Under the pieces are notes generated by a model, which saw nothing but the letters and a program-made list of their open reading frames with translations, did not search any database and had not been told where the DNA came from. The position numbers were made by a program, and so were the translations under genes. 46,654 bases of DNA from a virus, in the IMG/VR virus record IMGVR_UViG_3300013936_000004. One strand, written 5' to 3'. This document shows positions 1 through 46,654 of this stretch, piece by piece. The stretch's first letter is position 1, and every line of letters starts with the position of its first letter.

Positions 1-62
1 GGAGAAGCAGTAGTTTCCAAAGGAATTGGAGAAGCAGTTGTTTCCAAAGGAATTTTTGTTGC
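1..62. repeat. Terminal 62-nt sequence identical to 46593..46654, indicating circular or permuted contig ends
   Basis: Direct comparison: ggagaagcagtagtttccaaaggaattggagaagcagttgtttccaaaggaatttttgttgc occurs at both ends. The variant tttgttgc is seen only there. The minus-strand reading frame is continuous across the join. Confidence 0.85.
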
Positions 63-126
63 AGGAGTTTCCAAAGGAATTGTTGTAGCAGGCGTTTCCA
101 AAGGAATTGTTGTAGCATTTTCTTCC
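1..126 (-). repeat. 27-bp tandem repeat units (core tttccaaaggaatt), continuing the array at 46227..46654
   Basis: The same 14-nt constant core plus a 13-nt variable segment is visible at 1-126. It lies inside the fibre-like CDS. Confidence 0.9.
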
Positions 127-1005
127 GAAACCCATATCATGGCTGTTTATGCCTATTTTGTTACCATATACTTGGTAATTTGATGCTAAGTAATCTTCCG
201 AAAAAAATGGAATAAAAAATATAAAATTCAAGGATAACCTACTTATTATATCTTCATCATCTTTTATGAAAGTTTCAAAATTTTCCTTTATGATATTATT
301 GTTAGGAATAGTGGTATATATATCATCATCTCCTTTCAATCCTATAACTGATGCATCGTAAGATGTTTCTTGTCCATCTACTAACGAAAAAGTATATGCA
401 TAAATGAATGAAGTTGTCTTTTTCATATTATTCATGTTTGCCGATAGGTGATAAGGCACATCCATCTTATTATCGTAGTAATCTTGCATTTTTTCCCATA
501 AGGGGTCAGTTTCATCTACTGCATATATTTTATATTGTATATTCTTGAAATCGTAGAAACACTCGTTGTCCCACTCATCTTTCATCCACCAAACAACACC
601 CTTTCCGTTGGTTGTATCTGCCCAAGCAAAGCGGTTTGTGTCGTTGTCCAAGCAGTATTTCAGTTCCCAAGCACTCAACTTGCATCCACTGAAATAGGTG
701 TCCCCTTTGTGTTGTATCGCTTTGGCATTCTCGTTGAGTACATTCACATCGTCTGCCTTGACAATCACATCAAAGGCGTGCCCTGCACTCCGTGTGTCTG
801 TCTGTACACTTGTAGTCACAAAGTCAGTTATTCGATACCTCCTGCCTGCAACAAGTTTGCTCCCATCCCTCAACGCTTTGAGGTCGGCATAAGTGATGCT
901 TACCATTGGATTGAGAGCATTCTGCACTGCCGCTATTTGCTCCTTAACCCAAGTCTTTATTTTCTTTGAAAAGGTCGTTAAACCCGAATTATTTAGATAT
1001 CCCAT
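1..1005 (-). CDS. 5' part (335 codons) of a ~550-aa tail-fibre/receptor-binding-like protein with NSFGNxCxx nonapeptide repeats. It runs off the window start and continues at 46592..45945
   Basis: ATG at 1005..1003, 3 nt after the stop of the upstream gene. My manual translation found no stop down to position 1 (MGYLNNSGLTTFSKKIKTWVKEQ...). The ORF track omits it because it has no in-window stop. Its phase equals that of the 45945..46217 ORF once the 62-nt overlap is removed. Confidence 0.8.
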   Translation of the reverse strand, partial: MGYLNNSGLTTFSKKIKTWVKEQIAAVQNALNPMVSITYADLKALRDGSKLVAGRRYRITDFVTTSVQTDTRSAGHAFDVIVKADDVNVLNENAKAIQHKGDTYFSGCKLSAWELKYCLDNDTNRFAWADTTNGKGVVWWMKDEWDNECFYDFKNIQYKIYAVDETDPLWEKMQDYYDNKMDVPYHLSANMNNMKKTTSFIYAYTFSLVDGQETSYDASVIGLKGDDDIYTTIPNNNIIKENFETFIKDDEDIISRLSLNFIFFIPFFSEDYLASNYQVYGNKIGINSHDMGFGRKCYNNSFGNACYNNSFGNSCNKNSFGNNCFSNSFGNYCFS

Positions 1006-1447: not shown

Positions 1448-1846
1448 TTATGCTTCCTCCCATATTTTAGTTATCTCTGCATCGGCGATTGTTGCAGAGG
1501 TGTCGAGTTTGTTCGCATACACCTCGTTTATCGCTCCGACAATCGTCTTTGCAGTGGTCTGCAAGGTCTTGTCTGTGATGTACTGCTTGTTCGCTACATC
1601 GTTGAGAATGGCTTGTACCTCAACGGATAACTTGTCTTCGGTTATCTCACCCTCGAAATTCGCAAGTGCTTCTATGTTCGCCCTCGCTTGTGCTTTCTGT
1701 TCCTCTGTGTACTCTTGTGGGTTAATCTCACCCAAAGCATCCACCATCGCCAAGAGGACAGCCTGCAAGATTGGACCCGTAATCTCTCCGCGTCCGTTCT
1801 CCTTAACCTTTTTGGCTATAAGGTCTTTTAGTTGCTCGTAATTCAT
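1448..1846 (-). CDS. Hypothetical tail-associated protein (132 aa)
   Basis: ATG ORF in the tail module. It has a helical N-terminus with a QARANIEAL segment like those often seen in fibre proteins. Assignment rests on position only. Confidence 0.55.
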   Translation of the reverse strand: MNYEQLKDLIAKKVKENGRGEITGPILQAVLLAMVDALGEINPQEYTEEQKAQARANIEALANFEGEITEDKLSVEVQAILNDVANKQYITDKTLQTTAKTIVGAINEVYANKLDTSATIADAEITKIWEEA

Positions 1847-1859
1847 AATGCATTATTTT

Positions 1860-3038
1860 TTAATTGTTTATAATTTTTGAAACGGCTACCCCCTTGCCTA
1901 TTTTCTTTACTACTGAATTGGTTGTGAACTCACATGCTACCTCTGCCAAGTATCCCTGCTCCTGCCAAGTAGGTGTAATCAAAAACGATGTAGCATCGTA
2001 TGTCCATTCGTTTGTCACTATCTGTATATGGTCGCTCAATCGAATGAAACGCATTACATCGCATACCTCTTCGGGTGCAAGGATGTTGAACCTATACCGC
2101 TTGTAAGATACTTGACTGATTGGAAACTGATACCCACTGCGCTCTGCTACTTCTTCCTCGAACTCATAATCGGGCATACCTATCTCCGCATCAAAGTACA
2201 TTATATTTTTATATCCATTGGAATAGACGACTGCTCCTGCATCGAACTCCAAGTCCTCGTCATCCCACCATCTTATCTCCATACACGCACTGCACCACCC
2301 AAAATAAGCCGAATACCACTCGTTGTCATCTTCGTCTACTACCTTTACATACATCTTTGTAGGATGCTTATCTGTTGTGAGTACTACATTTCCGTTATAA
2401 CAGATGTAATCATAGTCACCTTTGTTAACGATATTGAATTTCGATATGTCAAGTGTGGTTATCTGCTCATCTGTATCCGCATCAAAGATGCTAACGCTCT
2501 CCAATGGCACTGGTGCTTCTACGGCTTTGAAATAAGTTGCGTTCTCTCCTCCCGTATATTGTAATATATAGATAGTATCCGCGTCCTGTGGTATGGTTAT
2601 GTATCCGCTCCAAGTCTTTGCTCCAAGAGGTACGGGATTGAGTGTTTTAATTACTTCTCCGCCTGTGTTGAGAAAGGCTATGGAAGTACCTTGTATTTGC
2701 TCACTCAAACCCGAATAGAATGGCGGTGTAGGTAGGTTCTCGATATAGATGTACTTCGTGTCCAATCCGTGCGTTTCGATACTACCCACGCCCGATTTAG
2801 AGGATGCATTCTCTATAAGATTGCCATCTTTGTCCAAATAGGCATTGTCTATGTAGTCTGCGGTTATCTCCGTCGAGGTCTTTTGTATAGAGGTTGTAGC
2901 CTCCCTTTGGATTTGAAAAGGCAATATGCGCTTATTCGGGGTTAAATAAACATAATCCCGACCAAAAGCATACCATTTTTTCTGCTCTATTTTATCGTCG
3001 TAAAAAGGAAGAGGAGAAAAGTTATTTTTGTTACTCAT
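1860..3038 (-). CDS. Tail/baseplate-region structural protein (392 aa)
   Basis: Long ATG ORF downstream of the tape measure and the large tail protein. No catalytic motif. Confidence 0.65.
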   Translation of the reverse strand: MSNKNNFSPLPFYDDKIEQKKWYAFGRDYVYLTPNKRILPFQIQREATTSIQKTSTEITADYIDNAYLDKDGNLIENASSKSGVGSIETHGLDTKYIYIENLPTPPFYSGLSEQIQGTSIAFLNTGGEVIKTLNPVPLGAKTWSGYITIPQDADTIYILQYTGGENATYFKAVEAPVPLESVSIFDADTDEQITTLDISKFNIVNKGDYDYICYNGNVVLTTDKHPTKMYVKVVDEDDNEWYSAYFGWCSACMEIRWWDDEDLEFDAGAVVYSNGYKNIMYFDAEIGMPDYEFEEEVAERSGYQFPISQVSYKRYRFNILAPEEVCDVMRFIRLSDHIQIVTNEWTYDATSFLITPTWQEQGYLAEVACEFTTNSVVKKIGKGVAVSKIINN

Positions 3039-21494: not shown

Positions 21495-21641
21495 CATACA
21501 AAAGAGCATCATACAAAAGAGCATCATACAAAAGAGCATCATACAAAAGACCCCCATACAAAAGAGCATCATACAAAAGAGCATCACGCAAAGAGCATCA
21601 AACAAAGAGCATCACACAAAAGAGCATCAAACAAAGAGCAT
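21495..21641. repeat. Iteron-like tandem array: ten abutting 14-15-bp units (consensus CATACAAAAGAGCAT)
   Basis: Units begin at 21495, 21510, 21525, 21540, 21555, 21570, 21585, 21599, 21613 and 21628. There are no spacers. An AT-rich tract (atatatatatataatt, ~21711-21727) follows. Confidence 0.9.
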
Positions 21642-21829
21642 CGCCACCCAATGAATAAGCATAAATAAGCAAAGAACATCGAACAGCCTCACCCAATAAT
21701 TGAAAGCCTCATATATATATATAATTACAAATGACCTATATTTGTTTTTTCAGCCCTTTATTCAAAGCCTTCATTATCAAAGCATTAAGAAAGCGGATGT
21801 AAAAAAGTTGAAAAAAAAGTTAGAATTTA

Positions 21830-22809: not shown

Positions 22810-22841
22810 TTTGCTCAATTCAAATTTTTGTTATACTTTTG
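22810..22841 (+). promoter_or_regulatory. Bacteroidetes-type promoter P2, a duplicate of P1
   Basis: TTTG (22810-22813), a 20-nt spacer, then TACTTTTG (22834-22841). The sequence is tttgctcaattcaaatttttgttatacttttg. Confidence 0.65.
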
Positions 22842-22868
22842 TATCTAGTTAAAAAAAAATTAATAATT

Positions 22869-24071
22869 ATGATTAAATGTAATTCAAACCCACTCCGTAA
22901 GGAGTTAACAGCGCTGCAAATTGCAGCTGTTTCATATCTATCCAAAAAAAAGGTAGATACTGAAATAATAGGAGTGCCTGACCATCAAAGGTATGGCACA
23001 AGCAAGGAGCGTTTTGCATCCCACTGGACGGGCGCAAACGCTTTTATTTTTACCCATAAAGGCGTCGAATACAATATCACAATAGACGCCCGTGAATTTT
23101 CAACCCCAAATCAAAGCCGTGAATTTTCGAAAAAAAATCAAGAAATTAAAACAAATAATAATATGAACAACAATGATTTATTCGCTCCAATCGTAGAGCA
23201 TATTAAAAGTGCTTGTATCAATGACTTACAAGCACAGGTAAACGAATTAAAAAATAAAGTTACAGCTAATAATGCAACTACAATAAAAATTGAGGGGTAC
23301 AAAGATATAAAAGTAGAAGGTACTTTGCATCCAGCCTTTGCAGATATTTTGACCTACTTAAAAGGCGGTGAAAATGTATATCTATATGGTCCCGCTGGTG
23401 CAGGCAAAAACTATTTAGGTAGTCAGATTGCATCCGCCCTCAATGTGGATTTTTATTATCAAAATACTATTTTGACCAAATTTGACCTTTCAGGCTTTGT
23501 GGACGCAAAGGGCGAATATCAAGCAACCGAATTTTTCAACGTATGGACAAAAGGCGGGTTGTTTTTTGCGGATGAATTGGACAACTCGACGGCAGAAGCA
23601 ATCATTGCACTAAACGCAGCATTGGCAAACGGATATTTCACATTTCCACAAATTGGACGCGTGGAGAAAAATAGGAATTTCTACTGCATTGCAGCCGGCA
23701 ACACAAATGGACAGGGTGCAACCGATGAATATTGTGGCCGGTACCAAATGGACGAGAGTAGTAGGGATAGATTTATTTTCAAATTTATCGACTATGATGC
23801 GAATATTGAGCGCGCCCTTTGCAATAATGATACGGATATCATAGATTTTGTTTATGCTTTGCGTACCGCTTGCAAAGCGACTGGGATAAAATTGATTTGC
23901 GGGTATAGACTTATTTCTAGACTTTATAAATTTTCAAACCTCGATGCAAAAATAATTCTTAATGATATGTTACTCAAAGGATTGAGCGCGGATGCAATCA
24001 AAGAACTTGCATCTGCAATAGAGTGTAATAACAAATACGCACAAGCCCTTAAAGAAATAGCAAACGCTTAA
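22869..24071 (+). CDS. AAA+ ATPase, MoxR/CobS-like (AAA_5-type), ~400 aa from ATG at 22869
   Basis: Walker A is VYLYGPAGAGKN and Walker B is LFFADELD. Sensor-like IAAGNTNGQG and an arginine region SSRDRF are present. The ~150-aa N-terminal extension contains an Asn-rich low-complexity linker. The track start at 22839 is a TTG inside the promoter. Confidence 0.75.
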   Translation: MIKCNSNPLRKELTALQIAAVSYLSKKKVDTEIIGVPDHQRYGTSKERFASHWTGANAFIFTHKGVEYNITIDAREFSTPNQSREFSKKNQEIKTNNNMNNNDLFAPIVEHIKSACINDLQAQVNELKNKVTANNATTIKIEGYKDIKVEGTLHPAFADILTYLKGGENVYLYGPAGAGKNYLGSQIASALNVDFYYQNTILTKFDLSGFVDAKGEYQATEFFNVWTKGGLFFADELDNSTAEAIIALNAALANGYFTFPQIGRVEKNRNFYCIAAGNTNGQGATDEYCGRYQMDESSRDRFIFKFIDYDANIERALCNNDTDIIDFVYALRTACKATGIKLICGYRLISRLYKFSNLDAKIILNDMLLKGLSADAIKELASAIECNNKYAQALKEIANA

Positions 24072-24084
24072 TTTATAGAAAGTT

Positions 24085-24867
24085 ATGAAAGAATATAAAC
24101 ATAAAAACATTTATGCCATGTCTTTTACCTCAATACATGAGGTGAAAGACTATATTGCACACACTCCGAATAACAGCGTGTGCAATTATTCAAACTCACA
24201 AAGCAATTCACAAGTCAAATTTACTGGTACAAAATCACTTGCGGACGCTTTGGAACTTATGCAAAACGGATATGTAGACGGCCTCAAAGGGCTGCAAAGC
24301 AAAGATATAAAGGGCGTTCAACCAGCTGCAAAGCGTGTAAATACATTATATTCGGCACAAATTGGATTTATTCCTAATGTAGGGGCGGTTGTAACGGGTA
24401 ATCCTATTAATATGTTCAATATTAAACAGATAGCATACAAAAATACTAAAATTGTAAATATATTCTACAATTGCAGCGTGAGCGCCGGCACTTCTACCGA
24501 TGCAATTATAGCAAAAACGCGCGAACTTTTTAGCATCGTGCAAAGTCTTGAACTTAAAGGATATAGAGTGAATTTGCATGTCGGTGAAATAGCAAAGTTT
24601 AACGAAGTTCTATTGATTGATATTAAGATAAAAGATGCGGGCGAACACTTTGATGCGCTCCGGGCTGCATTTCCGCTTTTGCACCCGTCCTTTTTGCGTC
24701 GTATTTGCTTTGCAATCGACGAGCGACAAACGGGCGTAAAAATAGACAGTTCCTACGGGCGCTGTGTGCAGTCCGATACGGCAAAAACGCTTTTATTTAA
24801 AGTACTACCTAACTACATATATACAAGCTATTATACCGACTTTGAGAAAGAATTAAAGGGGTTATAA
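24085..24867 (+). CDS. Partner protein of the AAA+ ATPase (260 aa), possibly a degenerate vWA-like fold
   Basis: Starts 14 nt after the ATPase stop. The segment KIVNIFYNCSVSAGTS followed by a helix and a strand resembles a vWA beta1-MIDAS region with DxSxS changed to NxSxS. This is weak and inferred. Confidence 0.55.
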   Translation: MKEYKHKNIYAMSFTSIHEVKDYIAHTPNNSVCNYSNSQSNSQVKFTGTKSLADALELMQNGYVDGLKGLQSKDIKGVQPAAKRVNTLYSAQIGFIPNVGAVVTGNPINMFNIKQIAYKNTKIVNIFYNCSVSAGTSTDAIIAKTRELFSIVQSLELKGYRVNLHVGEIAKFNEVLLIDIKIKDAGEHFDALRAAFPLLHPSFLRRICFAIDERQTGVKIDSSYGRCVQSDTAKTLLFKVLPNYIYTSYYTDFEKELKGL

Positions 24868-25148: not shown

Positions 25149-25178
25149 TCCGTGAATTTTCAGTCCGTGAATTTTCAG
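25149..25178 (+). repeat. Tandem 15-bp repeat tccgtgaattttcag x2, part of the GTGRATTT motif cluster
   Basis: Exact tandem copies at 25149-25163 and 25164-25178. The second copy overlaps the stop codon of the minus-strand 95-aa gene. Confidence 0.85.
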
Positions 25179-25483: not shown

Positions 25484-25765
25484 TTATGAATTTTTAGTTT
25501 TGTTTTCTTTTTCGTTGATGACCGAAAATAATTGCATAAATTTTGCTCTCTTTTCGGGATGATGGACTAAAAAAGCGGCTACTACTGGTAGTAATATCAG
25601 CTCTATTTCCGACCTCTGCTCTATTGCTGTATATACACTTGATGCAATCTCATTTCCCATCCCTTTGAGACTTAAAGTTATATCTTCTTCCCCTTTTGCA
25701 ATTATAAATGCCCTTTCGCATTCATTTACTAATTGGTCTGTCAATTCTTCAATTTTATTTTTCAT
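25484..25765 (-). CDS. Hypothetical protein (93 aa)
   Basis: ATG ORF in the early operon. Confidence 0.5.
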   Translation of the reverse strand: MKNKIEELTDQLVNECERAFIIAKGEEDITLSLKGMGNEIASSVYTAIEQRSEIELILLPVVAAFLVHHPEKRAKFMQLFSVINEKENKTKNS

Positions 25766-26477
25766 ACTCTTTTATCCTTGCGACCGCTCTATTGTAGTGG
25801 TCTTTGTTCAACTCGTAACCTATGTAATTTCTCTTCTCTAAAATGCACGCCACCGCGGTTGTTCCACTGCCCATGCAATTATCTAATACTACTCCGTCAG
25901 GCTTCGTGTACATCCGCACTAACATCCGTATCAGTTCAAGCGGCTTCTGCGTTGCTACTACCTGCGTGCGCTCCTTTGGGATATTGAGGATGCTCGTTGG
26001 AAACCCTCGCCGTGGTTGCCTTTCAGTCTTTCTGACATGCGCGAATGTTACTCCATTCCTACACTCTATTCGCTTCGCTTCCACCCTCTCTATTCCACTA
26101 TCGTAATAATGTGGATTTTTATCCCCAAATACACAAATACTCTCGTGCTTGTTGATGGGTTTCGTGTGTGCGTGGAAGAAATCCGTGCCGTTGTTCTTCG
26201 CCCAAATCAACTCGTATCTAAACCACTTCGGGTTACTGCTTATCAGTTCGCCAAGATACGCACCCGATGCAAACAAAATCACATTTCCTCCCTTTACAAG
26301 CACCCTCTTCCACTGCTTCCACAACTCCGATAGGTCTATTCTGTTATCCCATCTGTTGTTTTTGCACCTATTTACAGCTCTACTCGGTAGGTCACAAATG
26401 ATTGTATCTATACATCCGTCGGGTAGGCCTTTCAAACCCTCTAAACAATCCTCGTTATATATCTGATTTACTAACAT
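25755..26477 (-). CDS. DNA methyltransferase-like protein (N4/N6 beta-class layout, 240 aa) with a non-canonical catalytic motif
   Basis: The AdoMet motif DNCMGSGTT and the ATQKPLEL motif are at the C-terminus. In the N-terminal region IDTIICDLPS, the expected (D/S)PP(Y/F) reads DLPS. Confidence 0.7.
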   Translation of the reverse strand: MLVNQIYNEDCLEGLKGLPDGCIDTIICDLPSRAVNRCKNNRWDNRIDLSELWKQWKRVLVKGGNVILFASGAYLGELISSNPKWFRYELIWAKNNGTDFFHAHTKPINKHESICVFGDKNPHYYDSGIERVEAKRIECRNGVTFAHVRKTERQPRRGFPTSILNIPKERTQVVATQKPLELIRMLVRMYTKPDGVVLDNCMGSGTTAVACILEKRNYIGYELNKDHYNRAVARIKEYEK

Positions 26478-27190: not shown

Positions 27191-27498
27191 TTTTTTTGTT
27201 CTTCTTGTATTCTAATACCCTTTGCTCGGTTCTTCTCATACCACCTCTTTTGATACGCTCTCACCTTGTCGGGGTTCTTCTTTGCCCATTCGCGTTGATA
27301 TGCATTCCGCTCATCGCGATGCATCTCCTGATGCTTTTTTAGGTACGCTCTTCGTTGCTCTTTCTGCTCCTCTGTCATCCTCTCCCTGCGGCGTCGCTCG
27401 ACATCCCTCCAATACTCTCTGTATCCATCGGGGTCGTTTGTCTTCCACTCTTCGCGGTATTGACGCATGTATTCCTTTATGTATTCTTTTCTATTCAT
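27184..27498 (-). CDS. Basic helical-repeat protein (104 aa), paralogue of 26909..27190
   Basis: Shares WAKKNPDKVRAYQKRWYEKN with its neighbour. Very rich in Arg/Lys/Glu. Confidence 0.6.
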   Translation of the reverse strand: MNRKEYIKEYMRQYREEWKTNDPDGYREYWRDVERRRRERMTEEQKEQRRAYLKKHQEMHRDERNAYQREWAKKNPDKVRAYQKRWYEKNRAKGIRIQEEQKKW

Positions 27499-28345
27499 TT
27501 TTTTTAATCCTAAAATAATCTCTCATAAACTCTTCGGGCGTCTGCTCTAATGGAAACATCCCGGTTGTCTTCTTAATATAGTCCTCCGAATTTTTACAAA
27601 ACAACTCGGAATACATTAAATTCCAAGCATTGCGCTTGAACACATCTTCGGATATCTTTCCCCCCCCCCTATTGTTATAGTACCTTTGTATCCTCTTTAT
27701 AATTAGATTGAGTAATTGTGGGTACTGCTTCCATTGTTCTATCTGCTTTGTCTGACTTGCAAGCGGACATCCGATGCATCCCAATCGTCTTTCGGGATGG
27801 AACTTCCCCTGCTCGTCATAATAGACGGGTGCACACTTTATTCCTCGCTCCTCGATAAACTCCGCCACATCCTCCAAAGTCCAATCCAATATAGGGTAAT
27901 ATGCCCTTACTTTGGGCTTTCCTTTCATCTTCTTGTATATCCTGCACTCTTCGGGTTCGTGATATCGCTTTGCTCTTGCTGTACTTTCATCTGCTCTCAC
28001 TCCCATTATTGCACGAGGTAAAATTGGATACTCTTTTAACACTCCACAGCAAAACCGCCTAAACCTTGACGGCTTTCCGCGCTTCTCTATTAACTGCAAA
28101 AAAGTCTGTTCGGGGCGTCTAATCTCCACTCCCATATCCTTGCAGTGCTTTATAGTACCTATGGGGTCTATCGTGGTCATCTTGTAGATAGCGCGGTAGT
28201 TGATGCCTGCCATCTTTGCTAACTCCAAGCACACATCACTATCCTTGCCGCCCGAATAGGCTACCTCGATTGGTCCATCCTCCGTCGGAATGGCTTGCAG
28301 TAGCCGTATGGCTCTATCTACTTTCTTTTTCAACCTCTCTGTCAT
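27491..28345 (-). CDS. PAPS-reductase-family PP-loop protein (284 aa from ATG at 28345)
   Basis: PP-loop motif VAYSGGKDSDV and a C-terminal CIGC pair. The ATG at 28345 forms an ATGA overlap with the upstream ORF. The longer track start is non-ATG. Confidence 0.75.
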   Translation of the reverse strand: MTERLKKKVDRAIRLLQAIPTEDGPIEVAYSGGKDSDVCLELAKMAGINYRAIYKMTTIDPIGTIKHCKDMGVEIRRPEQTFLQLIEKRGKPSRFRRFCCGVLKEYPILPRAIMGVRADESTARAKRYHEPEECRIYKKMKGKPKVRAYYPILDWTLEDVAEFIEERGIKCAPVYYDEQGKFHPERRLGCIGCPLASQTKQIEQWKQYPQLLNLIIKRIQRYYNNRGGGKISEDVFKRNAWNLMYSELFCKNSEDYIKKTTGMFPLEQTPEEFMRDYFRIKKNE

Positions 28346-28785
28346 AACAATACAACCAATATGATTACCAATGCCAAGTGTAATGCTACGGATAATTGAA
28401 TGCTCTCGTGGATTGCCCTCTTTTTGTTCTCCCCTACTAAATCGTCCGCCCAATGCTCGGTATAGAAGTGACGATAATTTTTACCCCTATGTAAGCAAGC
28501 GTGTAAAAGGCTCGGCAAACCCACTATAAGCAAGTAGAACCACCCAAGTATCAGCGACTGCTTATAATGCCCTATTTCGTGCCTTTCTGTGACGCAAGAT
28601 AGGTCTTTAAAGACATTGAACTCGCAGAAGATAAATTCCCCTAACGATACACTACCGCGCATCAGTTCTGAATAGTATATCTTCTTCCCATCCACATACT
28701 TCGTCGTGTCGGGTCTTAATATCACCCACAACAACGCCCCTAATAGCGTCTGTGGAAGTGTCCAAAGAATTTTTATTATTTTCAT
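28342..28785 (-). CDS. Small membrane protein with an HExxH motif (147 aa), putative zincin-like peptidase
   Basis: HEIGH motif flanked by hydrophobic segments. ATGA overlaps at both ends. Confidence 0.55.
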   Translation of the reverse strand: MKIIKILWTLPQTLLGALLWVILRPDTTKYVDGKKIYYSELMRGSVSLGEFIFCEFNVFKDLSCVTERHEIGHYKQSLILGWFYLLIVGLPSLLHACLHRGKNYRHFYTEHWADDLVGENKKRAIHESIQLSVALHLALVIILVVLL

Positions 28786-36302: not shown

Positions 36303-36924
36303 CTTCTTCTCTATTTAGATATGTTACCACCTTGTTTGCAAGCGCAAAACAAGTATTTTTAAGTTTTTCCGCGTTATTGAGGTTACAGACAAAATCCACA
36401 TTCAAGTCCCTTTCATAACTATTCGCCATCTTAATCAAGCACTTACGCATATATTTGAGGTGCATATTCGTTTCCCCCTTTCTGTTAGGCAAATAGACAT
36501 AGAGGTTAGTCCACAACAACCCTGCAATCTGACATAGCAAGTCACATAGTAAGATGGATGCAAGCACATCCCTTGCGCTTTCTCCATAGGCATCTAATGC
36601 CGTGTAGAGTTCCATTTTGCACATCTCGATATAGTTATGCAATTCAGTCCCAAGATTGTCCATCTCGTCCATCATAAAATCCGCTTCGTCCATTGTAAGC
36701 GTGCGGAACAAGTCCGAATTAAACGCTTTATACTCTTTTGCAAAGTCGGTAAGATACTTCCGCGCTTCGTGCTTAAACTCCCTGTTTTTTATCTCCTTAC
36801 AATAGATTTGATATGCTATATCCATAAGGTAGTAAGGCGCAAGTAATGCAGTTGCATCCCCCTTTACCTCCATCTGCTTGTACTGTCGGAAGTACTTAAT
36901 CGCTATATCCTTGTATTGTTTCAT
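36295..36924 (-). CDS. Hypothetical protein (209 aa)
   Basis: ATG ORF coupled downstream of the helicase gene. Confidence 0.55.
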   Translation of the reverse strand: MKQYKDIAIKYFRQYKQMEVKGDATALLAPYYLMDIAYQIYCKEIKNREFKHEARKYLTDFAKEYKAFNSDLFRTLTMDEADFMMDEMDNLGTELHNYIEMCKMELYTALDAYGESARDVLASILLCDLLCQIAGLLWTNLYVYLPNRKGETNMHLKYMRKCLIKMANSYERDLNVDFVCNLNNAEKLKNTCFALANKVVTYLNREEDE

Positions 36925-38210
36925 ATTTCAACAAAATGTGTATAGTTTTCATTTCCCCTACATGCGATTTTCAGTCCTCCACCTGCTCCTGCTCTATTCT
37001 TCTGCAAGTACATATTAACCTCGTTAGTATTCTCGCCGAACTCGTTGCGTACCCTTTCAAGCATTATTACGATATCTGCATCCTGCTCGATTGAACCACT
37101 ATCCCGCAAGTCTTGTAGTTGTGGTGTTCTGTTAGCCGCATCGCGGTTCAACTGGCATAGTAACACGATAGGTATTTTTAAACTTTTGGCAAGTTTCTTC
37201 AATCGCTTCGTCATCTCCGTCACCTGCCTATATAGGTTCTTGTCGCTATCGCTTGTGCTCATCAGTTGCAGATAATCGATATAGACGATATCGCACCTCC
37301 CTTTGAGGGCGTTGAGCGTTATTGCAGTGCAGACATCATCCGCAGTTGCTTGCGCATCGTCAAACCACATCTTGCCGTTGTTGAGCATTTGCTTCGCCTT
37401 GTCGAAATTCTCCCAATCTACTTTGCCTGCTGCTATATCTCTTTTGTCAAGCAATCCCGTACTCGATAGCAACCTTTCCCCAAGTTCGATATTGGTCATC
37501 TCCAAAGACAAGATTAAAGCATTATAGCCGGCTATTGTCGCCGCTCTTGCCATCTGCATCATAAACATCGATTTTCCGACCGATGGGCGTGCCGCCAAGA
37601 CTACCAAGTTGCCTGCCGTAAATCCGCCGTAGGTAAACCAATTTAAAGTGCTAAAACCTGTTGTTATATGGGTTTCTGTTCCCTTGCTGACTTTCTCTGC
37701 TATCTCGTTAATCACCTCGCCTACACTTCGGGTTGTTTCGGAGTTCATATCTTGTTCGAGTGTGCGTGTCAGCGCAGTGGGCGCATCCATCACCTCCGAT
37801 AGTTGCGTGGCTTCATTGCTTGCTATTTGGAGGTTTCGTATGGCTTCAAAATATAACCTACGGCGTTGCATCACTACTTGCAGTGTGGTTATATGGCTTC
37901 GCACTTGCATATCTGTGCCATATCCGATTTGAGATGCAATTTGATTAAGGAAATAGGTCTTATCTACCCTTGCACATACGGATACCATATCGATAGTTTC
38001 GCGGGCATCGTACATTGCTCGTAATACTTTGTAGACTTCTTTCGCATCTCTGTCGTAGAATAGTCCCTCACATAGGATATTTAGGTTTTCGGGTATTAAT
38101 TCGGGACTTGTGATTAACTCGAATAATAGTTTCCTTTCGAGGTTCTCCTCGTAGGGAATAGGGAACTCTGCAAGTTGCAGAGGCTCTCTAAAATCTGTGT
38201 TTCTTTTCAT
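36921..38210 (-). CDS. dnaB: Replicative DNA helicase, DnaB family (429 aa)
   Basis: Walker A is ARPSVGKSMFMMQMA and Walker B is IVYIDYLQLM. SGSIEQDADIVIML is present. The N-terminal domain is typical of DnaB. Confidence 0.9.
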   Translation of the reverse strand: MKRNTDFREPLQLAEFPIPYEENLERKLLFELITSPELIPENLNILCEGLFYDRDAKEVYKVLRAMYDARETIDMVSVCARVDKTYFLNQIASQIGYGTDMQVRSHITTLQVVMQRRRLYFEAIRNLQIASNEATQLSEVMDAPTALTRTLEQDMNSETTRSVGEVINEIAEKVSKGTETHITTGFSTLNWFTYGGFTAGNLVVLAARPSVGKSMFMMQMARAATIAGYNALILSLEMTNIELGERLLSSTGLLDKRDIAAGKVDWENFDKAKQMLNNGKMWFDDAQATADDVCTAITLNALKGRCDIVYIDYLQLMSTSDSDKNLYRQVTEMTKRLKKLAKSLKIPIVLLCQLNRDAANRTPQLQDLRDSGSIEQDADIVIMLERVRNEFGENTNEVNMYLQKNRAGAGGGLKIACRGNENYTHFVEI

Positions 38211-39048
38211 ATTCTTCTATGTATTTTTTCGCATCCATTGTAGGCACTTCTGAATATTGCGCCTGTGGTTGTGTTTGGGGTTGTCTTGTATATCTTGCCT
38301 TACGTTCTTCATCGTTGCGCTTCCAAGTTTGCAGTCTTCTTTTTAGTTCCCATGTTTTTTCTTTCTCAAACCGCATTTTTTTACCGCCGAACTCTGTCCA
38401 GTAATCGCAGAATGCTCGTATCATTCTTTCTCCATATTCGGCTTCGTACATTTCGGCTTCCGCTCGGAACTTATCTTCGCGTTCTTCCCTTGTGAGAGAG
38501 GGGGGTGCTGGCGTTGTATGGGGGGAGAGAGTCACTTCGTGACTATTTTTGTTTTTAAGGTTGATACCTTCGGTTTTAGTACTACCCTTTACTACATTGG
38601 TAGGATTGGTCAGTGGGTAGTTTGAACTTTTTTCTTTGCTAAAACTATTTATAGTTTTAGTTTCTTTATTATCGTTATGTATATTATTTATATATATATC
38701 TTTATTATTGGGTGCAAATTCTGCACTACCCCCGTGCAAATTCTGCACTACCCCCGTGCTAATTTTTCCTTGATTGCAAGTATACCTTATTCGTTTAAAT
38801 TGCCCGTAGTCTTCTTCGCTTCTTATAAGATATTCTTCTCTTACTAAACTTTGCAAAGCATCTATTACTGCACGACGGCTATATCCTGTAAACTCTTCAA
38901 GATAAGAAATAGTACCATAAAAGGCACTATTGTTGTCTTGACAAAAGCCATAAATAATTGCGTACAATTCGAGTTGCAAGCCTTTCAACCCAAACATGCG
39001 CATCCAGCCGTGTACGACATAAAAATTGGTTTCTGTTATTTGTTTCAT
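38188..39048 (-). CDS. Replication initiator / helicase-loader-like protein (286 aa)
   Basis: N-terminal winged-helix-like region (LQLELYAIIYGF...ISYLEEFTGYSRRAVIDALQSLVREEYL). Positioned directly upstream of dnaB, overlapping it by 23 nt. Confidence 0.5.
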   Translation of the reverse strand: MKQITETNFYVVHGWMRMFGLKGLQLELYAIIYGFCQDNNSAFYGTISYLEEFTGYSRRAVIDALQSLVREEYLIRSEEDYGQFKRIRYTCNQGKISTGVVQNLHGGSAEFAPNNKDIYINNIHNDNKETKTINSFSKEKSSNYPLTNPTNVVKGSTKTEGINLKNKNSHEVTLSPHTTPAPPSLTREEREDKFRAEAEMYEAEYGERMIRAFCDYWTEFGGKKMRFEKEKTWELKRRLQTWKRNDEERKARYTRQPQTQPQAQYSEVPTMDAKKYIEEYEKKHRF

Positions 39049-43324: not shown

Positions 43325-43693
43325 TTATTCGTAATAATCCCATATTACTTCTTGTGGCAAATTCTCGTCGAAATCCGCGTGGATGAAAGTCTTGCCTATG
43401 CCTATCCTCGTGCAATAGTTGTCCAACAAGGCTCGTATTATCTTGAACCGATTGGCACTGCTCGTGCATTTTATATCCAATGCCGTCCCTCTCGTGTGTG
43501 CAGAGTTGCCACTCCTGCCGTGTTTCTTATCCCATTCTACACTTCTATATGCAGAGTTAATTACAAGCGGTATGCCTGCATCCTCCCTCACTCGGTCAAA
43601 GAGTGCCATTGCATCCGCGTCCATATCTTGTAGACTACACGGAGGGTCGCACCTGCGGAACTCCTTTTCACTAAAATACTTGCTCTTAATCAT
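43325..43693 (-). CDS. Endolysin, peptidase M15 (VanY / L-alanyl-D-glutamate peptidase-like, 122 aa)
   Basis: SAYRSVEWDKKHGRSGNSAHTRGTALDI ... FIHADFD gives the Zn-ligand pattern H...D...H of the M15 family. Confidence 0.8.
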   Translation of the reverse strand: MIKSKYFSEKEFRRCDPPCSLQDMDADAMALFDRVREDAGIPLVINSAYRSVEWDKKHGRSGNSAHTRGTALDIKCTSSANRFKIIRALLDNYCTRIGIGKTFIHADFDENLPQEVIWDYYE

Positions 43694-44294: not shown

Positions 44295-44963
44295 CTATGC
44301 AAGTGTCCAACCCTTTGCAGTGGCGGCGGTCTTCTGCGCTTCTGTCACCTTTGCAAGATTGGTTTCACCAAGCGTTAGTGTCTTACCCGTTACCTCTTTG
44401 AGGTGTGAAAGTATATAATCTATGCTTTCTGCATCCAAAGGACAATCCGATAGAGTGAGGTCGCAACCAATGTTATCCACTCTCATATAAGATAGTTTTG
44501 TGCAATGAGTAAAAGCATTTGCCGCACTTGTAACCGCTCCAAAGTCTACTGAACCACTTATCGGAAACTGCGTTAGTGCTGTACAACCAAAGCACAAGTT
44601 CGTTATATTGGTTACCTTTGATGCGTTCAGTGATGGTACGGATGTAAGTGCTATGCAGTTGTAAAACATATTACTCATATTCGTTACCGCTTTGGTGTCT
44701 ATGCTCTCTATGTCAATCAAGTCTTGACAATCGTAAAACATAGCCGCACAAGTCGTAAGGGATGCAAAGACAAGTTTAGGAAAATGCGTTGCCGTACTTC
44801 CTTTGAATTTCGTTCCATCGGGTAAGGTAGTCCCCGTAGGGATTGCCTTAATCCTTGTGGCATAGTTTGCCAACACCTCGTCACAAGCCACGCCCTTGCT
44901 TGTTATTGCGCTCTTGATGCTTGCTTTTGAAGTCTTTATGCTTGTTATCTGTTCTTCTACCAT
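44295..44963 (-). CDS. BspA-type leucine-rich-repeat protein (222 aa), fibre/receptor-binding candidate
   Basis: Repeats of the LRR_5 type: MFYDCQDLIDI..., MFYNCIALTSVP..., LCFGCTALTQFP..., AFTHCTKLSYM. Confidence 0.65.
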   Translation of the reverse strand: MVEEQITSIKTSKASIKSAITSKGVACDEVLANYATRIKAIPTGTTLPDGTKFKGSTATHFPKLVFASLTTCAAMFYDCQDLIDIESIDTKAVTNMSNMFYNCIALTSVPSLNASKVTNITNLCFGCTALTQFPISGSVDFGAVTSAANAFTHCTKLSYMRVDNIGCDLTLSDCPLDAESIDYILSHLKEVTGKTLTLGETNLAKVTEAQKTAATAKGWTLA

Positions 44964-44967
44964 AGCC

Positions 44968-45927
44968 CTATCCTATTATTTCATCTAACTGCTCACTTAC
45001 TGATTGTAGGCTCGTTGTGCCCTTTATCAAAGTCCCATCTGCCTGCACTTTGATGCAGATTGCATCTTCGTAGTTGTTAGTGTTCTTCACTAACTGACCA
45101 AACCACTCCGTACCAATCTTGTGCAGAGTACCTGCATAGAGGTCGTTGTAGGTGCAGTGCATCACTTGTGCAGTAGGGATTTTCGATAAGTAGACTTCGA
45201 GTTGTGCCTTATTCGACAAAGTGGTGTCAGTGAAAGGCACTGGCGTGTAAGAGTACTTGATTGCATCTAACATCTCCACAACCTCATTTGAGGTCTTTTC
45301 AAGGAAATAATTGTCTGCACTGAAAGTCACTTCTCCCGTTGAAGTGTTCACATTCATAGGATAGTGCTTGCTTTCATTTATGTCCGTCACTATACCGCTC
45401 AAAAGAGTGCCCGTACCGATATTAAGAGTGCCAAAGTATTCGGCTTCGTTGTCGGTCAAGACAATAGGGATTGAGTAGCCATTTGTGGTTTTTATCCCTG
45501 CATCTGTTAGTATCTTTACAAAGGCTGTTATTGCCGTTTTATTGGCGGCATTTTGACCCGTTGTAAGGGTTATAGGAGCAAAAGCATTGACTGCCTTTGC
45601 TTTTGTGTTCACCTCGTTGATTTTTTCATTCACATCGGTGGTCTTTGCATACCCCAAAGCCTCAACCTTTCCTTTAATCCAAGTCCATAAAGAGGAAAGT
45701 GGGCGTCTGTGATATGTAGTGGTTTCTGTTCCCCCACTTGTATATTGTGAGATGAAATAGTCGGCATCCACGGGTGCTGCTATTCCCGTACTCAACTTGT
45801 TTATAAGCCCGTTCAATCCACTTTCCGTGTTGTTTACCTTGCCCGTTATCTCCGTTTGTAGGCTCGTTGAAAGTTTCTCCTTGCTAATGCTTTTATCTAT
45901 TATCGCATCGGGATTTAATTTTGTCAT
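44968..45927 (-). CDS. Tail-fibre-like protein (319 aa)
   Basis: Thr/Asn/Gly-rich ORF lying between two other fibre-like genes. Confidence 0.55.
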   Translation of the reverse strand: MTKLNPDAIIDKSISKEKLSTSLQTEITGKVNNTESGLNGLINKLSTGIAAPVDADYFISQYTSGGTETTTYHRRPLSSLWTWIKGKVEALGYAKTTDVNEKINEVNTKAKAVNAFAPITLTTGQNAANKTAITAFVKILTDAGIKTTNGYSIPIVLTDNEAEYFGTLNIGTGTLLSGIVTDINESKHYPMNVNTSTGEVTFSADNYFLEKTSNEVVEMLDAIKYSYTPVPFTDTTLSNKAQLEVYLSKIPTAQVMHCTYNDLYAGTLHKIGTEWFGQLVKNTNNYEDAICIKVQADGTLIKGTTSLQSVSEQLDEIIG

Positions 45928-45944: not shown

Positions 45945-46654
45945 TTAATTGATTAAATCTGCTTCGCAGTATTGTTTGATTTCTCCATTGCTGTTCTTTG
46001 CTACTATCCACTCATAGTCAGCACCAAGCGCAATACTACTACAATCTATCGTGAGTTTCTTCGAGATGTTTGTACCCTTTATACCCGACTTGATTGTTAG
46101 GTTCTGCAAAGGTGCACTCGATGATGGTTTCGTTGCTTGCTCATTAAACAAAAGTTGTACATATCGCACTCCATTGTCCACATGTATATATTGGATGTTA
46201 TCGAATTGAGCATCCACGATTGTTCCTTTTCCAAAGGAATTGAAGTTGCAGTTGTTTCCAAAGGAATTGTAGTTGCAGTCGTTTCCAAAGGAATTGAAGT
46301 TGCAGTTGTTTCCAAAGGAATTGGAGGAGCAGTAGTTTCCAAAGGAATTGGAGTCGCAGTCGTTTCCAAAGGAATTGAAGTAGAAGCCTTTTCCAAAGGA
46401 ATTGGAGTCGCAGTCGTTTCCAAAGGAATTGTTGTAGCAGTCGTTTCCAAAGGAATTGGAGTCGCAGTCGTTTCCAAAGGAATTGTAGTAGCATTTGTTT
46501 CCAAAGGAATTGTTGTAGCAGGCGTTTCCAAAGGAATTGTAGTTGCAGTTGTTTCCAAAGGAATTGTTGTAGCAGGCGTTTCCAAAGGAATTGGAGAAGC
46601 AGTAGTTTCCAAAGGAATTGGAGAAGCAGTTGTTTCCAAAGGAATTTTTGTTGC
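45945..46654 (-). CDS. 3' part of the junction-spanning fibre-like gene: NSFGNxCxx repeats plus a ~85-aa C-terminal domain (46593..46654 duplicates 1..62)
   Basis: The frame containing the 45945..46217 ORF stays open upstream through every repeat unit; I checked all 13 distinct variable 13-mers and found no stop. It is in phase with the 1..1005 ORF. The track shows only the GTG-initiated tail because this frame has no start codon within the repeats. Confidence 0.8.
   Translation of the reverse strand, partial: NKNSFGNNCFSNSFGNYCFSNSFGNACYNNSFGNNCNYNSFGNACYNNSFGNKCYYNSFGNDCDSNSFGNDCYNNSFGNDCDSNSFGKGFYFNSFGNDCDSNSFGNYCSSNSFGNNCNFNSFGNDCNYNSFGNNCNFNSFGKGTIVDAQFDNIQYIHVDNGVRYVQLLFNEQATKPSSSAPLQNLTIKSGIKGTNISKKLTIDCSSIALGADYEWIVAKNSNGEIKQYCEADLIN
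46227..46654 (-). repeat. Tandem array of 27-bp units (tttccaaaggaatt plus a 13-nt variable segment). About 16 units lie here and the array continues at 1..126, giving 18 NSFG units in the joined gene
   Basis: Units were read directly. The minus strand has no stop codon in any of its three frames. Confidence 0.9.
46593..46654. repeat. Terminal 62-nt sequence identical to 1..62
   Basis: See the feature at 1..62. Confidence 0.85.

Follow-up and report, generated by a model that had tools for sequence, protein, structure and literature searches.

The distal tail-fibre adhesins of T-even phages (gp37/gp38) reportedly carry conserved motifs (His boxes, glycine-rich motifs) that flank hypervariable segments. 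Here we describe a 27-bp tandem array in the window, the whole stretch of 46,654 nucleotides that was analysed, which is a siphovirus-like genome of ~46.6 kb. The array resembles the T-even adhesins in the alternation of conserved motifs with hypervariable residues, in its position at a tail-fibre locus and, as we propose below, in a change of specificity through recombination or duplication between conserved motifs. The two have no kinship in sequence or fold, however: the polyglycine-II sandwich of the adhesins contrasts with a predicted beta-solenoid of strict 9-residue, 27-bp units, and the copy number here varies between 7 and 26. Massive variation at a few NNC-type codons of a tail-fibre protein also characterises Mtd of Bordetella phage BPP-1, which is diversified by a diversity-generating retroelement (DGR), but the array gene lacks the reverse transcriptase, template repeat and adenine specificity of that system, and its variable region is a tandem array instead of a C-type-lectin fold.

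Among short-period repeats, the RTX nonapeptide beta-roll (GGxGxDxUx) shares the nine-residue period, the short strand plus turn per unit and the variable number of units, but the array unit (GNxCxxNSF) has no Gly/Asp calcium-binding motif and places two inward-type residues (F and C) in each unit; HemolysinCabind (RTX) was not matched in Pfam, where the joined protein hit 0 families at E ≤ 1. The quadrilateral beta-helix of pentapeptide repeats (e.g., the SV2 luminal domain) is likewise made of very short units with an inward Phe/Leu and a small residue (Ala/Cys), but its period is five residues, A(D/N)LXX, instead of 9; Pfam Pentapeptide gave no match, and SV2 luminal domains appeared weakly in Foldseek (E 0.3–1, TM <0.3). 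CroV588 (PDB 6nyr) is built from a 22-residue FGxxFN leucine-rich repeat (LRR) unit, LxxLxFGxxFNQxIxENVLPxx (PMC9525666). FNIP/FGxxFN LRRs have an F-G-x-x-(F/C) motif in common with the array, and a family profile matches CroV588 at E 2e-17, but the CroV588 unit is 22 residues long and the profile alignment has a posterior accuracy of 0.41–0.58 with no consistent register; the joined protein has no match to Pfam FNIP, and the similarity to CroV588 is motif-level only. In the literature, we found no description of the nine-residue unit or of nonapeptide or solenoid repeats in phage tails. The array represents a new type of repeat, and the tail-fibre family to which it belongs is very large and uncharacterised.

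A gene divided between the two contig ends

Tandem Repeats Finder placed the 27-bp array at 46228–46646 (15.5 copies, 87% matches, no indels), with a second stretch at 6–117 (4.1 copies). The minus strand contains 20 copies of the 15-nt core of the unit, AATTCCTTTGGAAAC, at ≤2 mismatches, compared with 0.16 expected by chance, and all 20 are confined to these two stretches at the window ends. The last 62 bases of the window are identical to its first 62, and no other end overlap of 20–600 bases was found at ≤10% mismatches; the window is a circularisable contig with both ends within the array. Two of the 20 cores are duplicates arising from the terminal overlap, which leaves 18 units of consensus G-N-x-C-x-x-N-S-F with a period of 9 residues. 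A sequence-only reading of this DNA had proposed 18 nonapeptide repeats with one strictly conserved Cys per unit. Tandem Repeats Finder and the core search bear out the repeat and, after removal of the duplicate, its count, but the Cys is present in 17 of the 18 units, unit 13 reading GKGFYFNSF.

The repeat lies in a single minus-strand ORF of 550 codons that runs from an ATG at 1005–1003 to base 1 and continues from 46592 to a stop at 45945–45947 (Table 1). The 62-bp overlap decides the frame: as 62 mod 3 is 2, plain end-to-end concatenation shifts the NSFGNxCxx frame, and only when the overlap is collapsed does this frame close to give 550 residues. The earlier reading was thus right to take NSFG as the coding frame and to expect a product of about 550 residues, but it had missed the terminal duplication on which the join depends. 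The gene is intact in mid-contig, with the same neighbours, in two related contigs of 45 and 37 kb (L001 and L002), and likewise intact in mid-contig, again beside these neighbours, in two IMG/VR contigs (L003 and L004); the best database homologues are 550, 568, 496 and 453 residues long, with alignments covering 100% of the query. At the sequence level, these intact mid-contig relatives independently confirm the gene model.

Table 1. Positions of the array gene, its parts and its neighbours in the window
Feature	Position	Strand	Remarks
Gene, 5' part	1..1005	-	residues 1-335; ATG preceded by AAGGAGGAA
N-terminal core domain	511..918	-	residues ~30-165; beta-rich, pLDDT >90; conserved
Lineage-variable insert, core to array	127..510	-	residues ~166-293; low model confidence
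Array units 1-5 (5 partial)	1..126	-	residues 294-335
Array units 5 (rest)-18	46233..46592	-	residues 336-455
C-terminal domain and stop (45945-45947)	45945..46232	-	residues 456-550, GKGTIVDAQF...AKNSNGEIKQYCEADLIN
Terminal duplicate	46593..46654	.	copy of window 1-62; to be removed when reading the gene
180-aa (ETTASPIPL)n ORF	46097..46639	-	spurious, alternative array frame
98-aa (LQFLWKR)n ORF	46198..46494	-	spurious, alternative array frame
Tape measure protein, 986 aa	5263..8223	-	phrog_20660, E 1e-125
392-aa protein, upstream	1860..3038	-	PHROG annotated tail fiber, phrog_33450, E 4e-35
132-aa protein, upstream	1448..1846	-	first 38 residues 55% identical to P0007 N-terminus
222-aa DUF285/BspA-type LRR protein, downstream	44295..44963	-	domain match
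Endolysin (Peptidase_M15_3)	43325..43693	-	marks end of tail module

The protein consists of a short N-terminal helix, a beta-rich core of ~135 residues, a variable insert, the 18 units and a C-terminal domain of ~95 residues. In a 52-sequence alignment, the core has 24 invariant columns, often occupied by Asp, Asn, Arg, Tyr or Trp and including Y57, R58, D79, E92, D102, Y104, W113, Y117, N121, D122, W128, D143, N147 and Y151-D152-F153-K154. The C-terminal ending, ...AKNSxGxxKxYCEADLI, is kept in many family members.

In the window, the array is open in all three minus-strand frames and, as the sequence-only reading had warned, misleads ORF calling, with both an ETTASPIPL and an LQFLWKR ORF listed. 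Among complete arrays of the family, by contrast, both alternative frames are open in only 1 of 51 and both contain stops in 34 of 51, and we therefore reject selection for three open frames. The three-frame openness in the window follows from stop-free units together with variable codons ending in C, and, judged from their sequence, the two ORFs are by-products of a stop-free repeat.

The arrays of the window and of the family were all assembled from short reads, a procedure in which 27-bp repeats can be collapsed or scrambled. For at least 11 of the 79 IMG/VR loci (L016, L021, L024, L026, L033, L041, L048, L053, L055, L056 and L058), a contig end lies within 26 bases of the array or inside it, and several contigs of metagenome-assembled genomes (MAGs) also appear to stop at the family match. 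Contig ends inside the array are much commoner than chance allows, and the "direct terminal repeats" used for calling such contigs complete may stem from the repeat itself. The number and order of units in short-read assemblies are provisional, as is the count of 18 here, which is the assembler's solution given that both contig ends fall within the array. As the array disrupts short-read assembly, automatic annotation splits or frame-shifts the gene or puts spurious repeat ORFs in its place.

Tail-module context, family and predicted fold

Transcription of the genome is nearly all on the minus strand, and the array gene follows, in order, the tape measure gene and genes for proteins of 719, 392, 132 and 145 residues; after it come a 319-aa protein, the DUF285/BspA-LRR protein, a 206-aa protein and the Peptidase_M15 endolysin. 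The array gene is thus flanked by the tape measure and tail-fiber PHROG matches on one side and the endolysin on the other, an order that is the same in L001 and L002, and other family members are also located in phage late regions. Several homologues carry informative fusions: PTR (phage tail repeat) stands at the N-terminus of P0099 (E 5.5e-12), Mtd_N at that of P0110 (E 1.4e-8), and in P0007 the N-terminal adaptor of the 132-aa protein is fused directly to the core, array and C-terminal domain module. Judged from these sequences, the N-terminal 38 residues of the 132-aa protein (NYEQLKDLIAKKVKENGRGEITGPILQAVLLAMVDALG) look like a swappable tail-fibre adaptor; the counterpart of this protein at the same position in L001 is 261 residues long. 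The case that the 550-aa protein is a tail fibre, or of receptor-binding type, is good though circumstantial, gene context and domain fusions both pointing to it, and the earlier description of a fibre-like protein fits this setting.

A strong Shine-Dalgarno motif stands upstream of only 7 of the 38 minus-strand ORFs, among them the array gene (AAGGAGGAA), the next gene (44968–45927) and the tape measure gene. Most leaders are AT-rich, in keeping with a Bacteroidota-type host.

With the N-terminal 290 residues as query, phmmer found 3,614 cluster representatives (50% identity) at E ≤ 1e-3 and 1,804 at E ≤ 1e-30, and a word-indexed search gave 3,581 matches among 8,000 scored candidates, none of which bears a functional name. 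Among species-representative genomes, the family is found in MAGs only, mostly of Bacteroidales (Paludibacteraceae, Prevotellaceae, Muribaculaceae and Porphyromonadaceae) from gut and rumen. Some family proteins contain up to 7 matched core stretches, with sizes to 2,482 residues, and many members are concatemers of core, array and C-terminal domain (P0009, P0013, P0066, P0121–P0130). A variant unit, S-W-T-C-G-N-x-C-x, replaces N-S-F-G-N-x-C-x-x in P0005, P0060 and P0113 and in L005, L007, L016 and L021; in this unit Cys takes the place of Phe and Trp that of Asn, so that each unit has two Cys, and P0005 combines both unit types within one array.

Searches of the joined protein against Pfam, PHROGs and NCBIfam returned nothing significant, the sole entry being YdhT, far below the cut-off, and tblastn against 50,697 GenBank phages found no homologue at E ≤ 1e-3. 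At E ≤ 10, the core was covered only by gp99 of Sphingomonas phage PAU (27.8% identity over 93% of the core, E 0.9) and by one unannotated faecal phage scaffold. PAU gp99, an unannotated protein of 1048 residues, is the only cultured-phage protein with a core-like domain, sharing the motif ITYxxL...YRIxDY, but unlike the protein described here it has no nine-residue array after that domain. It is encoded at 72355–75501 of JQ362498 (our L143) in a cultured phage of 219 kb, with the core domain near its C-terminal third, and PAU could serve as an experimental handle on this domain. A Foldseek search of BFVD gave two matches at E ≤ 0.001: the unnamed H9NBX6 (E 1.3e-5, prob 1.0, 26% identity over 135 columns) and a 138-aa mimivirus TNFR-Cys protein, which we take to be a Cys-repeat artefact. 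The H9NBX6 match is consistent with the similarity to PAU gp99, the identity of H9NBX6 with gp99 being only putative. These searches define a large unannotated phage tail protein family whose unit and core have no Pfam, PHROG or NCBIfam model and lack a convincing counterpart in the PDB.

All structure predictions are monomer models. AlphaFold2 gave the full protein a mean pLDDT of 70.7, with values >90 in the core and 57–77 in the array. A second model, made from the last residues of unit 5 through unit 18 plus the C-terminal domain with a register-anchored alignment, reached a mean pLDDT of 80 and 85–92 over most of the array. Its DSSP assignment is strictly periodic (EE----E--, period 9), each unit forming bridges at Ser-Phe and at the residue that follows Cys. 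The array is thus a predicted beta-solenoid with no close solved relative. A beta-helix or beta-roll had been suggested from the repeat pattern, and the model agrees; the accompanying comparison with YadA/Hep_Hag head repeats did not hold, as Pfam gave none at E ≤ 1 and the top 50 Foldseek matches contained no YadA-type structure.

For both models, Foldseek found nothing in the PDB better than E 0.2. Beta-solenoids are well represented among the weak neighbours (phage tailspikes, PL6 and pectate lyases, Ag43, SV2, RP2/TBCC), the best beta-helix-type match having E 0.24 and TM 0.31. Searches of the PDB with phmmer and profiles yielded repeat or low-complexity matches only (9hcj, an FG-rich chain with a WD40-like domain; CroV588; Spt5), which we rejected as compositional or motif-level similarity. 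In the solenoid we envisage, F and C together with Asn/Gly turns would form the core and corners, and the three x positions would face outward as a surface rich in Tyr, Asn, Ser, Asp and Phe; this outward face may make contact with some variable structure on the host surface, a polysaccharide being the likeliest.

Hypervariation of the array and how it may arise

Seven variants of the phage have arrays of 7, 12, 18, 18, 19, 20 and 26 units, with 45 unit types among 120 units. Their flanks are nearly identical, at 99.0–99.3% nucleotide identity in the N-terminal regions and 97.6–99.0% in the C-terminal domains as measured for L001–L004, the other variants being known as proteins only. Some pairs of variants share runs of units; L001 and L004, for instance, agree in their first 12. 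Copy number had been expected to change in frame, and the range of 7–26 units between near-identical phages bears this out; the idea of a length-adjustable stalk holds as far as unit number varies, but it had missed three hypervariable positions in each unit.

The contrast between constant and variable codons within units is sharp. Across 96 units, the constant codons GGA, AAC, TGC, AAT, TCC and TTT are invariant at all 576 synonymous sites, the sole changes being five AAC to AAA replacements, which are non-synonymous. In the same 96 units, positions 1 and 2 of the three variable codons have an entropy of 1.36 bits. The variable codons are NNC, with C as the third base in 256 of 288; genome-wide, C- and T-ending codons are about equally frequent, and TCC is a rare Ser codon (9%). 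The amino acids at the variable positions are restricted to Y, N, S, D, F, K, E, G, A and R. Near-identical flanks with differing arrays also occur in other lineages (L013/L015, with 20 vs 19 units; L044/L073; L097/L098). In other lineages, the third base shared by the variable codons is T (32/36 in L060), and the constant codons differ at synonymous sites by between 0 and 0.93 bits. Given the T third bases and the synonymous divergence in other lineages, the core is unlikely to be required as a DNA sequence, and we rejected a DNA-level function of the invariant 15-nt core on these grounds.

The explanation that we consider best, and judge to be probably correct, is that the 550-aa protein is a tail fibre in which recombination of units, together with selection, diversifies the face of the solenoid. 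Units would be added, deleted and reshuffled through slippage or unequal recombination between the identical 15-nt cores, and diversifying selection would act at the three exposed codons of each unit; together these processes would change the length and binding face of the solenoid with the frame kept. Concerted evolution combined with strong diversifying selection on three exposed positions is the simplest account of the pattern. The array is a clean natural case of extreme non-synonymous variation at fixed positions of a repeat scaffold without a DGR. It is relevant to how host range evolves in the gut and rumen phages associated with Bacteroidales, and it could be a designable binder scaffold.

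Alternatively, the array might be a rigid, length-adjustable spacer with neutral x residues, receptor binding residing in the N-terminal core or the C-terminal domain. The in-frame copy number of 7–26, the richness of the core in invariant polar and aromatic residues and the conservation of the C-terminal domain over much of the family would all suit such a protein, and the invariant core residues could mark a real binding or catalytic site. Neutral drift, however, cannot yield saturated first and second positions beside zero synonymous change at 576 sites, and the restricted set of amino acids at the x positions points to selection; we regard a mere spacer as unlikely.

A bolder reading, which we hold to be quite unlikely, makes the array a DGR-independent, self-diversifying binding scaffold in which units are actively shuffled and the three exposed codons actively renewed, keeping pace with variable glycans on the host surface. 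If this were true, thousands of gut and rumen phages would use the solenoid as a counterpart of cassette-built receptors such as the lamprey VLRs, and ordinary slippage and selection would not suffice: recombination or mutation would have to be a dedicated or strongly favoured process.

The weak Foldseek neighbours could also be read as a sign that the protein is an enzymatic tailspike, a polysaccharide depolymerase with the solenoid as its catalytic beta-helix, in that PL6 alginate lyases, pectate lyases and phage tailspikes are among them. These matches all have E > 0.2 and TM 0.1–0.3, however, Pfam shows no beta-helix or lyase match at E ≤ 1, the perfectly periodic 9-residue unit leaves no space for irregular active-site loops and the length of the array is freely variable, all of which make an enzyme improbable enough to carry little weight.

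Very improbable, in our estimate, is a dedicated mutagenic mechanism, DGR-like or otherwise targeted, that recodes the three NNC positions in every unit. In the variability of its first and second bases, the NNC pattern does resemble the AAC codons diversified by DGRs, and Mtd_N occurs in one distant homologue, but we found no reverse transcriptase domain in any ORF ≥280 aa or in the Pfam annotation of the syntenic L001, and no template-like second copy of the core exists anywhere in the genome. Moreover, the adenines of the constant GGAAAC and AAT never vary, findings that together exclude a DGR. Lys (AAA) and Glu (GAA) codons are present, which adenine mutagenesis of AAC cannot give, and the NNT codons and accumulated synonymous change of other lineages speak further against any such mechanism. 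Finally, that the feature is an assembly artefact, or that the ETTASPIPL or LQFLWKR frames are real genes, has a near-negligible probability: both contig ends do lie in the repeat and short-read assemblers often fail at the array, but thousands of independent homologues keep the NxFGNxC frame using different codons, the alternative frames do not join the flanking domains and they are seldom open together in complete arrays, as counted above.

Other repeats and a possible cassette in the genome

Further repeats lie elsewhere in the window. A 15-bp tandem repeat, CATACAAAAGAGCAT, spans 21495–21642 (~10 copies, 88% matches), just map-downstream of the terminase region, and might act as an iteron, a packaging site or a regulatory array. 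At 38712–38764, a 22-bp repeat, GTGCAAATTCTGCACTACCCCC, is present in 2.4 copies with an internal palindrome (GTGCA...TGCAC), in or beside the replication genes, which include a DnaB homologue at 36921–38210. The only sizeable plus-strand block, at 22839–24867, encodes an AAA_5 ATPase (410 aa) and a DUF7192 protein (260 aa) at a low GC content of 0.36; short TCCGTGAATTTTCA repeats lie at 23090–23141 and 25149–25178, and the block may be an inserted accessory or defence-type cassette. The early region encodes, on the minus strand, an N6/N4 DNA methylase and a PAPS-reductase-domain protein (25755–26477 and 27491–28453), which may have DNA-modification functions.
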